From NCBI GenBank assembly GCA_041690395.1, contig JAWLHJ010000004.1, positions 96,001-160,000 of the forward strand: 64,000 nt of DNA, in the 5' to 3' direction. Of the stretch, positions 56,751 through 60,564 are shown in pieces; within the stretch, counting starts at the first letter, position 1; every line of letters begins with the position of its first letter. The notes beneath the pieces are model-generated. The model was given only the letters and a program-made list of their open reading frames with translations. It had not been told where the DNA came from and did not search any database. The stretch comes from Longimicrobiales bacterium (GTDB lineage Bacteria; Gemmatimonadota; Gemmatimonadetes; Longimicrobiales; Gaopeijiaceae). A program made the position numbers and the translations under genes.

Positions 56751-57107
56751 TCACTCGGCCGGTGCGTCCCAGCGCGGGGCGTCTCCCCACAGGTTCTCGA
56801 GCTGGTAGAACGAGCGTGCCTGGGGGTGGAAGACATGGACGACGAAGTCGATGTAGTCCAGCAGAACCCAACGCCCGCCATTCATCCCCTCGACGTGCTC
56901 GGGCTTCACGTCCGCCTTCTTCAACTCCTCGACCACGTGCTCGGCGATGGCCTTCACCTGCACGTCGGAGTTGCCGCTGGCGATGACGAAGTAGTCCGTC
57001 GCGGACGAGATGCCCTTCAGGTCCAGCACCACCAGGTCGTGCGCCTTCCGCTCCAGGGCAAGAGCCACGGAACGGTTGACCTCCTCGGGGAAGTCGCGCG
57101 GCGTCAC
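56751..57107 (-). CDS. rsfS: Ribosome silencing factor
   Basis: KAHDLVVLD, DYFVIASG.S..QV.AI, WVLLDY.DFVVHVF, FYQLENLW. Confidence 0.97.
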   Translation of the reverse strand: MTPRDFPEEVNRSVALALERKAHDLVVLDLKGISSATDYFVIASGNSDVQVKAIAEHVVEELKKADVKPEHVEGMNGGRWVLLDYIDFVVHVFHPQARSFYQLENLWGDAPRWDAPAE

Positions 57108-57130: not shown

Positions 57131-57586
57131 TCAGCCTTCCTCCCGCTCCACCCGAATCTCGAGCTCGACCTCGACCTCGGGATGCAGGCGCACACCGACC
57201 GGGAAGACCCCGAGCGACTTGAGCGGCTCCTCCAATTGGATGGTGCGACGGTCGAGCTCGAAGTCGAGCTCGCCGGTGTTCGCGCGCTCGGCGATCTCGG
57301 CGGCGGTGACGGACCCGAACAGCTTGCCGTCTTCGCTGGCCTTCACCTCGAACGTCAGCGACAGGCCTTCGACCTGAGCCGCACGACGACGCGCCTCGAG
57401 GAAGTCGCGACGCGCGCGCTCCTCGGCCTTGGCCTGCTCCTCTTCGAGGCGCTTCATGTTCGCCTCGCTGGCGACGTACGCCAGGCCCTGCGGGAGCAGA
57501 TAGTTACGTCCATATCCGGGCTTCACCTGCACGACCGCACCGGCCTCGCCAAGGTTCGCCACGTCCTGCTTCAAAATGAGCTTCAT
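57131..57586 (-). CDS. rplI: 50S ribosomal protein bL9
   Basis: MKLILKQDVANLG...VKPGYGRNYLLP, GKLFGSVT; start at ATG 57586. Confidence 0.98.
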   Translation of the reverse strand: MKLILKQDVANLGEAGAVVQVKPGYGRNYLLPQGLAYVASEANMKRLEEEQAKAEERARRDFLEARRRAAQVEGLSLTFEVKASEDGKLFGSVTAAEIAERANTGELDFELDRRTIQLEEPLKSLGVFPVGVRLHPEVEVELEIRVEREEG

Positions 57587-57608: not shown

Positions 57609-58553
57609 TCAGACGGTCGTCTCGCGCAACCGAGCGCGGACGTCCAGCCAGGTGTCTCCGATACCGACGACCATCGCGACGCCCACGACCACCGGAGCGG
57701 CCAGAACGAGCGAAATCGCGAGCAGCACGTAGCCGAACAGAGACAAGCCTCCACTGATGTACATGAACACGGCGGATCCACGGAGCGCGTACAGTGCACC
57801 CATGAACACGACGGCGTTCGATCCGACTCGGGCGACAGCGTCGCCCCAGCGGGTGACCACGAGGAGCAGCCCGGCGATCATGAGCCACACCAGATGATCG
57901 TTGAAGCGAAAGTTCCGTACCGGACCAATCGCCTGATCTCCTCCTCCTCCCAGACGCGTGTACAGCCACCACGCGACTGCCAGCCCCGACATCGAGGCGA
58001 TCCCCATCAGGGCGGGAAAGACATTCGTCTGAGCCCGCGCCGTCTGATGGATCGCCGTCGCCAGTGCGGGCGACACCGCCCCGTCACCGCGGAGCAGCTC
58101 GAACGCCTGGACCGTCGTCGCAACACCGGCCTCGACGGCATTCTGCACCGCGAAGTCGACAGTCTCCCAACCGCCCGCACGCAGTGCCAGGACCGCCCCG
58201 GCCGCCAACAGCGCGCCTCCGACCGAAGTCAGGAGACGGGCCGACAGCCGCCAATGGGGCGCAGCGAGCGTAACGCCCACGAACCATCCTCCGACGAGCA
58301 GCCCCCAGGCCCTCTCCATGAACCAGAAGCCGTCGCGCGTGCCGGACACCACCAGCACCATGGCGAGCACGGCGGCGATGAAGACACCCGGCCCACGAAC
58401 CCCCCTGAACCCCGCGATCACCAGGAACGGGATCGCGACGAGAACGCTCGGCTGCACGACGGACGCCGCCATCGTGACGCCGAAGAGTCCCGCGGCCCTC
58501 GGCCAACCCCGGCCAGTGGGCTCGCGCGACTCCGGGACGCCCTCCCGATCCAC
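57609..58553 (-). CDS. DUF2232/YybS-like membrane protein
   Basis: Multi-TM protein ending G..DTWLDVR; sits between rpsR and rplI as YybS does. Confidence 0.8.
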   Translation of the reverse strand: MDREGVPESREPTGRGWPRAAGLFGVTMAASVVQPSVLVAIPFLVIAGFRGVRGPGVFIAAVLAMVLVVSGTRDGFWFMERAWGLLVGGWFVGVTLAAPHWRLSARLLTSVGGALLAAGAVLALRAGGWETVDFAVQNAVEAGVATTVQAFELLRGDGAVSPALATAIHQTARAQTNVFPALMGIASMSGLAVAWWLYTRLGGGGDQAIGPVRNFRFNDHLVWLMIAGLLLVVTRWGDAVARVGSNAVVFMGALYALRGSAVFMYISGGLSLFGYVLLAISLVLAAPVVVGVAMVVGIGDTWLDVRARLRETTV

Positions 58554-58558
58554 CTTCC

Positions 58559-59182
58559 TCAGCCCTCGTGGCGCCGGGTGTAGGGGATGAGTGCCAGATA
58601 GCGCGCACGCTTCACGGCCCGCCCGAGCTGCCGCTGGAAGGCTGCGTTGACCTTGGTCGTGCGCTTCGGAAGGATCTTCCCCTGCTCCGTCAGGAAGCGC
58701 GCGAGCGTCGAGACGTCCTTGTAGTTCAGGAGCGTGATCGCGGGCCCTTCCATGCGCCGGCGCCGGCCGCCGCCACCCTGGAACTCGGGGGGCGAGCCGT
58801 CGTCGTCCTCGTCCTCTTCCTCTTCATCATCGTCGTCGTCCTCGTCACGCTCGACGTGATGCACCTCGGCCATGATCGACTGGCCGTTGGTGGGCTCGCC
58901 CTCGTTCAGGACGATCAGGTAGCGGAGGACCTCGCCGTCGAGCTTGACGATACGCTCGAACTCGGGCAGCGCGTCCGGGGCGGCGTTGAACTGCGCCACC
59001 ACGTAGTAGCCCTGGTTGAGCTTGTTGACGGGGTAGGCGAGCTGGCGGATGCCCCAGTGGTCGACGGAGGTCACTTCGCCGCCGTTGGCGGTCGCGAGCG
59101 CGTGGAACTTGTCGAGCTTCGCCGTCACGGCGCTCTCGTCGAGCGCCGGGTCGAGGATATACACAGCCTCGTAAAGCCGCAT
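58559..59182 (-). CDS. rpsF-rpsR: Fused 30S ribosomal protein bS6-bS18
   Basis: aa 1-93 are S6 (YE..YILDP, WG.RQLAY, GYY, VLRY); aa 113-128 are pure D/E; aa ~150-207 are S18 (NYKDV..L..FL.EQGKILP.R.T, QRQL..AVKRARYLALIPY). No stop between them. Confidence 0.93.
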   Translation of the reverse strand: MRLYEAVYILDPALDESAVTAKLDKFHALATANGGEVTSVDHWGIRQLAYPVNKLNQGYYVVAQFNAAPDALPEFERIVKLDGEVLRYLIVLNEGEPTNGQSIMAEVHHVERDEDDDDDEEEEDEDDDGSPPEFQGGGGRRRRMEGPAITLLNYKDVSTLARFLTEQGKILPKRTTKVNAAFQRQLGRAVKRARYLALIPYTRRHEG

Positions 59183-59361
59183 TTCGGTTTCCCTCGGTCC
59201 GTAGAAATGGTCACGGGCCCCGTCATGACTTGGATCCTCACTGCGGTGGAGGCTTCCGGACGGAGCGGGATTTCATTGTTTGCGCCGTTCTGGCGCTCCC
59301 GAAGCTAGCGCAACGGTTGGCGGGGCGGTAGGCGCGGAACCGCGTCAGCCCTGGCCTACGT

Positions 59362-60564
59362 TTACGTCGAGGCCTGGTGTAGCGCTTCGATGAGGGTCGG
59401 GTATCGCTCGAGACCCCACTTGAACTCGTCCACGGATATGCGCTCCCGGTTGGTGTGCGCGTAGTGCTCCTCCCCGGGCGCGAAGCCCATGGTCGGGATT
59501 CCGTGCACCCCACACGTCCAGCCGCCATCGGTGGCGAAGCGCCACGGGCGGATGCGAGCCGGTCGGTCGGCGTCGTCGCGCGTGCCCACGGCCGCCGCGG
59601 CCGCAACGATCGCCGGGTGATCGGGGTCCACCAGAAATCCGGGGCTGAACATGTCCCGAGACCGCTCGAACCCGGTGTAGGTCCGCTGATGGACCGAAGC
59701 GATCCGCACCTCCACGCCGCACCCTTCCGGTGCCTCGGGAATCCGGCCGCGCACGGCGCGCTGAAGGCGGGCCAGAAGCTCCTCGGGCGTGTCGTTCGGC
59801 AGCACCCGCCAGTCCACGGCGATGACCACCTGGTCCGGGATCACGTTCCGGGTCTCGGGGACGACGTCGATCATGGTCGCCACAGCCGTGGAGCCGCCCA
59901 GGAGCGCGTCGGTCGGCTGGTCGGCCTCGAGGTCGCGCACGGCGGCAAGAGCGTCCCCGACCAGGTCGAGAGCGTTCCTGGCTCGGGACGGCTCGCTCGC
60001 GTGCCCCGCCCTTCCCCGAATCACGATCTCGAGCTCCGCGCGTCCCCGGTGGCCGATGCACACGTCGCCGTGCGTGGCCTCGCCGATGACCACCCAGGCT
60101 GGCTCGAAGTCCCCGGACTCGAGCAGCACCTTCATGCCGAGGCCGCCCTGCTCCTCGAGCACCGTGTGCGCCACGATGACGTCTCCGGAGGCCCGCCCCG
60201 CCATGGCCGCGGCCGCGTACGTCTGCACCGCCAGCGGCCCCTTGATGTCCATCGCGCCCCGGCCGTGCAGATACCCATCCTCGACCACACCCGCAAACGG
60301 CGGGTGCTCCCACTCGGCGGGGTCGCCGGCCGCCACCATGTCGAGATGACAGGCGAGCATGACCGGCGGAGCGGCCCCGTTCCCCTTCACTACACCGATT
60401 ACGTTGCCGACGTCGTCGACCCGCACGTCACGAAGTCCCAACGCACGCATCTCGGCTTCGACGAGCTCGGCGACCCTCTGCTCGTCCCCCGGGAGCCCGG
60501 GCGTCTGGATGAGCCTCGACGCGAAGTCGAGCGCGTTCTCGAAGGAAGCTTCTTTGATGGTCAT
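59362..60564 (-). CDS. M20/DapE/YgeY-like metallo-hydrolase
   Basis: HLD, HGRGAMDIKG, EE, GE, G..GHAS.P, ATDG, AHT..E. Confidence 0.9.
   Translation of the reverse strand: MTIKEASFENALDFASRLIQTPGLPGDEQRVAELVEAEMRALGLRDVRVDDVGNVIGVVKGNGAAPPVMLACHLDMVAAGDPAEWEHPPFAGVVEDGYLHGRGAMDIKGPLAVQTYAAAAMAGRASGDVIVAHTVLEEQGGLGMKVLLESGDFEPAWVVIGEATHGDVCIGHRGRAELEIVIRGRAGHASEPSRARNALDLVGDALAAVRDLEADQPTDALLGGSTAVATMIDVVPETRNVIPDQVVIAVDWRVLPNDTPEELLARLQRAVRGRIPEAPEGCGVEVRIASVHQRTYTGFERSRDMFSPGFLVDPDHPAIVAAAAAVGTRDDADRPARIRPWRFATDGGWTCGVHGIPTMGFAPGEEHYAHTNRERISVDEFKWGLERYPTLIEALHQAST

Follow-up and report, generated by a model that had tools for sequence, protein, structure and literature searches.

The window, the whole stretch of 64,000 nucleotides that was analysed, contains on its minus strand a single gene in which the ribosomal proteins bS6 and bS18 are joined in one polypeptide. 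S6 and S18 are normally separate chains, which form a heterodimer on the bacterial 30S platform; this canonical complex, of which PDB entry 1G1X is an example, binds to the central domain of the 16S rRNA after uS15. The following features were assigned at the locus:

59190..59270, minus strand: conserved 5' leader, putatively of the S6:S18-binding type, from fold and covariation and by comparison with excerpts of PMC3854524
58559..59182, minus strand: fused rpsF-rpsR gene for a bS6-bS18 protein of 207 amino acids (open reading frame, Pfam and NCBIfam matches)
58904..59182, minus strand: bS6 domain, aa 1-93 (Pfam, NCBIfam, model pLDDT of about 90, Foldseek)
58847..58903, minus strand: C-terminal extension of bS6, aa 94-112, the first half conserved and common to split relatives, predicted to be ordered to about aa 107
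58799..58846, minus strand: run of 16 Asp/Glu, aa 113-128, the inherited acidic bS6 tail that is now internal, predicted to be disordered and of varying length across the family
58742..58792, minus strand: arm PPEFxGxRGRRRRx(E/D)GP, aa 131-147, conserved, replacing the ancestral S18 start and the CxxC knuckle
58751-58753, minus strand: internal Met144 inside the arm, not a conserved start
58562..58741, minus strand: bS18 core, aa 148-207, with zero cysteine (profiles, alignment, model pLDDT 82-93 over aa 151-200)
57609..58553, minus strand: DUF2232 membrane protein, the next gene (32.3 bits, cut-off 27.8)
57131..57586, minus strand: rplI, coding for bL9 (Pfam and NCBIfam)
56751..57107, minus strand: rsfS, coding for the ribosome silencing factor (Pfam)

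The reading frame begins with ATG and comprises 207 codons with zero internal stops. A sequence-only reading of the locus had proposed that a full S6 domain and the S18 core lie in this one frame, and the profile scan bore this out. Domain assignment was based on the curated cut-offs of PF01250/TIGR00166 for bS6 and PF01084/TIGR00165 for bS18. Pfam Ribosomal_S6 was matched at aa 4-91 with 99.8 bits and Ribosomal_S18 at aa 152-199 with 67.1 bits, each above its curated cut-off, and the NCBIfam equivalogs for S6 (TIGR00166, aa 1-92) and S18 (TIGR00165, aa 149-203) were also above cut-off. The 16 consecutive Asp/Glu and the GGGGRRRR stretch that had been noticed in the linker were located at aa 113-128 and, as read off the sequence, at aa 136-143. 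In the 3' direction DUF2232, rplI and rsfS follow in this order on the same strand, which is in line with the usual rpsF-rpsR-DUF2232-rplI arrangement described before, and neither ssb nor priB is present between the S6 and S18 domains of the fused locus. A gene for an M20-family peptidase is located immediately 5' of the leader, at 59362-60564 on the minus strand.

A separate rpsR elsewhere in the genome, for which a check had been suggested, was not found: the whole-genome search of the 98%-complete assembly gave a single match each for S6 and S18, and the two lie in the fused frame. With a single frame and no second copy, the locus departs from the two genes and two chains of the canonical heterodimer. 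It shares with that complex the domains, the operon order, the downstream rplI, the RNA-contacting Lys and Arg and the bS6 fold, whereas it has one frame instead of two and neither a free S6 C-terminus nor a free S18 N-terminus. The best 60 sequence matches in the PDB included no two-domain S6-S18 chain.

The distribution of the fusion was investigated in the Longimicrobiales-labelled Gemmatimonadota, here called the family, of which 146 genomes were searched and 143 gave a match. One unbroken fused frame was identified in 134 of the 143. In 111 genomes a single match extends over both domains without a stop, in 16 two matches were found by reading the sequence to belong to one frame with a longer linker, and 7 further genomes are in frame by coordinates and agree in the length of a single open frame. 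True splits were identified in two of the 143 genomes (G349 and G355), with a TAG stop, an own ATG and a zinc-type S18. Two others (G378 and G395) contain one-base slips near the arm without an S18 start, and have intact relatives in the same genera; contig ends or N gaps explain four more. In G346, one contig codes for an S18 with about 70% identity to Chloroflexi proteins, and this contig probably has a foreign source. On it (C9; loci L099 and L104), in a genome that is 60% complete, Chloroflexi-like rpsF and rpsR are located about 540 nt apart; contamination is probable.

Outside the family, the two genes are separate in every one of the 27 distinct loci that were read from the rest of the class. 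In the 29 distinct split loci of the class, rpsF and rpsR are separate genes, with stop and start mostly adjacent or overlapping. The fusion is thus a family-wide trait, while the sister families are split, and the earlier suggestion of a fused gene throughout a lineage was upheld by this survey of relatives, in which the close ones are not split; a covalently tethered product would follow from it. A secondary split with an own start was not found among the 143 family genomes. About 50 S18-only database entries of the family type exist, mostly on short contigs, and a rare secondary split may occur in the family.

An assembly or sequencing artefact that deletes a stop codon would also join two adjacent genes, and would be favoured by a linker of low-complexity sequence; furthermore, two family assemblies contain the one-base slips in the linker and arm region, and 8 of 54 two-domain matches in the large search described below looked chimeric. 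This is contradicted by the unbroken frame in 134 of 143 family genomes and by the presence of both Pfam domains in 120 of 120 homologues (the best 120 of 2231). The named homologues among these best 120 of 2231 belong to Gemmatimonadota or Longimicrobiales, and nearly all are annotated as 'S6' alone. In addition, four public sequencing runs from three studies were aligned over the region, with contigs that represent close relatives, that is, other strains. Those of three runs (X2, X4 and the RNA run X3) cross the whole linker with zero gaps, a read-level check having been proposed for positions 58700-58900; the contig of run X1 enters the linker from S6 and reaches as far as the arm. The crossing by the contig of RNA run X3 is no proof of transcription. 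None of the 20 substitutions listed inside the frame introduces a stop (25 further differences exist). The view taken at the outset that this is not one miscalled stop was upheld: the linker of the independent contigs contains neither a stop nor an indel, and the relatives are fused likewise. Homologues, genomes and independent contigs together refute an artefact, whose probability is negligible.

In an S6-only tree, 56 of the 57 fused rows were grouped with an SH-aLRT support of 96, one long-branch row lying outside, and in a 48-row S6-only tree all 19 fused rows fell together with a support of 75. In a further S6 tree, computed for the recurrence set, two such rows fall outside the group. 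The split members G349 and G355 are located outside the fused group in the S6-only trees, which makes a single origin of the fusion within the family likely. In these two zinc-type members (L055 and L056), S18 starts with Pro-Pro and the leader already contains the added hairpin described below; their state is likely to be the one that preceded the fusion. A horizontal origin of the S18 half from a zinc-free (C-) donor was considered as well; in a tree of 58 columns, fused proteins, split family members and C- outsiders share one open node.

The region between the domains was compared in 57 distinct fused loci, comprising the 30 best-scoring ones, a second set and hand-picked divergent loci, with one truncated locus dropped. 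The poly-acidic stretch had been regarded as a new linker, a view that was not sustained. In 12 split loci of the order, bS6 already ends in the same EGEP...acidic tail; the acidic segment of the fused loci ranges from 36 to 178 residues with a net charge of -5 to -45; and domain linkers of other natural fusions are as short as 6 residues. The stretch is the inherited bS6 tail and is dispensable for spanning the gap between the domains. Since 6 residues are sufficient elsewhere, the termini would lie close together, and the long acidic segment would have to loop out. A conserved linker length, suggested by top matches of 206-207 amino acids, was rejected as an effect of ranking, the full range of the fused proteins being 206-345 amino acids. 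Very long linkers rich in Ala, Gly and Glu, in proteins of 285-345 amino acids, were seen in one subclade (L098 of G165, L106 of G384, and L043).

The arm motif PPEFxGxRGRRRR precedes S18 in 55 of the 57 fused loci. By an equal-length match of aa 147-206 to residues 16-75, Lys191 and Arg194 were identified as the equivalents of E. coli K60 and R63, which according to excerpts of PMC3854524 and PMC4647458 read the CCR of 16S rRNA; this Lys and Arg are retained in 57 of 57 fused loci. An AlphaFold2 model based on a 136-row alignment (pTM 0.71) was ordered at aa 1-107 and 145-204 and disordered at aa 108-144, while with a 25-row alignment S6 alone was resolved and everything past aa 96 was poorly defined. 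The arm was poorly defined in both models. Foldseek with the model gave bS6 chains with a TM score of 0.9 by target, so that the bS6 part has the bS6 fold both by this comparison and by a model pLDDT of about 90.

A conserved arm that is predicted to be disordered, as cleavage sites often are, could also belong to a polyprotein, the product of the fused gene being cut in the linker or arm to give separate S6 and S18, with PPEF...RRRR as the protease site. Processing of ribosomal protein precursors is known in bacteria, where Prp cleaves bL27. However, N-terminal arms rich in Arg and Gly are common among S18 proteins, a dedicated protease gene is absent beside the operon, where the upstream neighbour codes for an M20-family hydrolase, and the other fusions, devoid of the arm and with linkers down to 6 residues, suggest that a tethered form is structurally workable. 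Cleavage is thus considered quite unlikely. A role of the arm as a substitute for a lost bS21 was also discarded, since bS21 is present in 151 of 151 genomes of the class, including 37 of 37 family members, a tally that includes four unpublished genomes on which no claim depends. Two or three bS21 matches were seen in many Gemmatimonadetes genomes outside the order (families f5-f8). A RimK-family match above cut-off was obtained in three of five genomes, one fused and two split, and is absent from the genome of the window.

Met144 lies within the arm, and members that keep its ATG might also make a short free S18 from this internal start. The codon is retained in the genome of the window, in its closest relatives and in 25 of the 57 fused loci, Met is found at this position in 99 of the best 120 homologues (of 2231), and gene callers give S18-only products of 64 amino acids that start there. 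However, 32 of the 57 loci have another codon (CAC in 20, GTC in 6 and six others once each), and free S18 cannot be initiated at CAC or GTC in those genomes. Met144 is therefore not a general or conserved start. Moreover, in the window an SD-like motif is absent from the 14 nt upstream of Met144, the residue stands opposite the knuckle's second cysteine in the alignment, about 8 residues past the ancestral start, and the 64-amino-acid entries are mostly found on short contigs. A dual output is very unlikely, slightly more so than cleavage.

The S18 half differs from that of the split relatives in its zinc site. Cysteine was found in the S18 part of none of the 57 distinct fused loci, where all four zinc ligands are gone, and in none of the best 120 of 2231 homologues, while CxxC and CxxH are kept in 28 of the 29 split loci of the class. 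Zinc-free S18 that is unfused also occurs in the class (L090 and L155), so that fusion is not needed for the loss of zinc. General zinc sparing in the ribosome was rejected as a cause, since uS14, bL31, bL33 and bL36 of the genome of the window retain their cysteines, as they do in the split relatives. In G162, two bL33 copies were identified (L140 and L142), of which one has two CxxC motifs and the other has none.

A zinc-free (C-) bS18 exists in E. coli and as an alternative paralogue in mycobacteria, as described in excerpts of PMC9976891, and the absence of CxxC and CxxH is shared with the fused proteins. In contrast to that paralogue, however, the S18 found here is the sole one, its relatives bind zinc, and the second, zinc-binding copy of the paralogue system is absent, with a single S18 match found genome-wide. 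Three states were encountered, namely split with zinc, split and zinc-free, and fused and zinc-free, but never a fused protein with zinc. This pattern favours a loss of zinc before or together with the fusion; an intermediate between zinc loss and fusion was not found in the family.

Fusions of S6 and S18 outside the family were identified by searching 1.84 billion cluster representatives with a profile built from zinc-free fusions. The 150 matches listed include 144 new ones, of which 54 contain both domains. Seven of these are of the family type, and 39 are other fusions; the remaining eight, of which two show CxxH and one a stray CxxC, were excluded because they are probably chimeras or read-throughs. 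The 39 other fusions, unrelated to the family fusion and above both Pfam cut-offs, contain CxxC or CxxH in 0 of 39 cases among the matches listed (one row was read by eye). They are scattered over the S6 tree with 6 label changes, 2 of which are forced by strong branches; of 20 that were looked up, 15 belong to clusters of one member and have no taxonomy. Domain order and absence of the zinc motif are the same as in the family fusion, whereas the S6 is unrelated, the linkers are different and often short, and the PPEF arm is missing. Many of the 39 may derive from lineages that were already zinc-free. A second Cys-free fusion with its own short linker was confirmed in two genomes of one genus from another Gemmatimonadetes family (L153/L154 in G470/G514); the split relative that scored best in a set of 201 genomes is itself already zinc-free. 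By these comparisons, zinc-free fusion appears to have arisen separately in other bacteria. With the Chloroflexi-like S18 as a query, an S6 domain was found in 0 of the best 120 of 543 matches; many of these proteins (P0254-P0373) are Chloroflexi-like bS18 of 171-244 amino acids with long extensions and without an S6 domain.

It is a tentative and rather doubtful proposal that S6 fusion is a repeated, selected replacement for the lost zinc knuckle, with the arm of this family docking on the 30S platform in addition and altering the reading of mRNA starts. A tether in place of the knuckle would explain why the zinc motif is absent from all fused proteins seen. Alternatively, fusion and zinc loss may have drifted to fixation without benefit, with the same working mechanism. 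Such drift would have been eased by stops and starts that in most split relatives overlap or are only a few bases apart, which facilitates in-frame joining, and by the proximity of the S6 and S18 termini; the unconstrained linker length, the many scattered origins of fusions and the zinc-free unfused S18 of the class are also in its favour. On the other hand, no re-split gene with an own start was found among the 143 family genomes, a new arm reached fixation, and the zinc motif is found in 0 of 39 other fusions compared with 28 of 29 split loci of the class. Neutral fixation is given slightly less than an even chance.

In the leader upstream of the gene, the SD-like GGGA is paired within a closing stem. 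The leader also has a long hairpin that varies, a short additional hairpin and, at 59195-59197 (minus strand), a CCG that is unpaired. Over 47 loci, 94.9% of the cells are paired and 6 pairs show two-sided change, compared with 31-51% paired in slid controls, counts that are inflated by kinship and refer to a structure derived from the same sequences. The fold of the window's own leader is no more stable than that of shuffled sequences (z -0.44), and none of 16 leader loci reached the gathering score of an Rfam model, the window giving chance-level matches only. The S6:S18-binding motif of rpsF leaders is described, in excerpts of PMC3854524 and PMC4647458, as comprising a hairpin, a stem in which the SD is paired and, adjoining the SD, a CCR that is unpaired; all three parts are found here. 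Unlike in the leaders described there, the bulge contains an extra short hairpin, which G349 and G355 have as well; a single chain is the predicted ligand, and an Rfam match is lacking. This resemblance makes it likely that the fused protein represses its own mRNA via the upstream leader. A promoter scan identified none. Sequestration of the anti-SD as in Bacteroidia was not supported, since the SD is in use genome-wide: by crude start calling, an SD-like motif precedes 235 of 773 starts (30%), compared with 12% further upstream and 11% at internal ATGs.

Taken from gene and model, the following course is considered probable. The fusion would have arisen once in the family, from an operon in which the rpsF stop abutted the rpsR start, and the single frame would be translated as one tethered S6-S18 chain. 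The two domains would pack onto each other inside this one chain, the former acidic tail of bS6 becoming a floppy internal loop, and the tethered chain would occupy the bS6 and bS18 sites of the 30S platform in place of the heterodimer. Because the fused gene is the sole copy of S6 and S18, its product would be expected to bind the 16S central domain after uS15. The basic arm may bind rRNA or a neighbouring protein within the ribosome only, and excess fused protein would bind its own leader and cause autorepression. The least certain step is a compensation of the lost zinc knuckle by the tether.

A description of a natural bS6-bS18 fusion was not found in the full-text literature, in which subscription journals are thinly covered, and the excerpts of PMC4647458, PMC3854524, PMC10931766 and PMC11651109 do not mention one. 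The fusion is a new form of a known complex. The zinc loss in S18, the PPEF arm, the retained leader and the recurrence go beyond the sequence-only reading, and recurrence makes the fusion less singular than it had seemed there. An obligate ribosomal pair, whose boundaries are usually treated as fixed, is here one gene across a large family and was apparently fused many times independently. The natural single-chain proteins are ready constructs for asking whether the pairing of the partners limits 30S platform assembly, and they allow testing whether tethering can stand in for a structural zinc and what becomes of autoregulation once the heterodimer step is removed. For genome annotation, the fused proteins are labelled as 'S6' alone in the databases, so that rpsR can appear to be missing from the genomes of this family.
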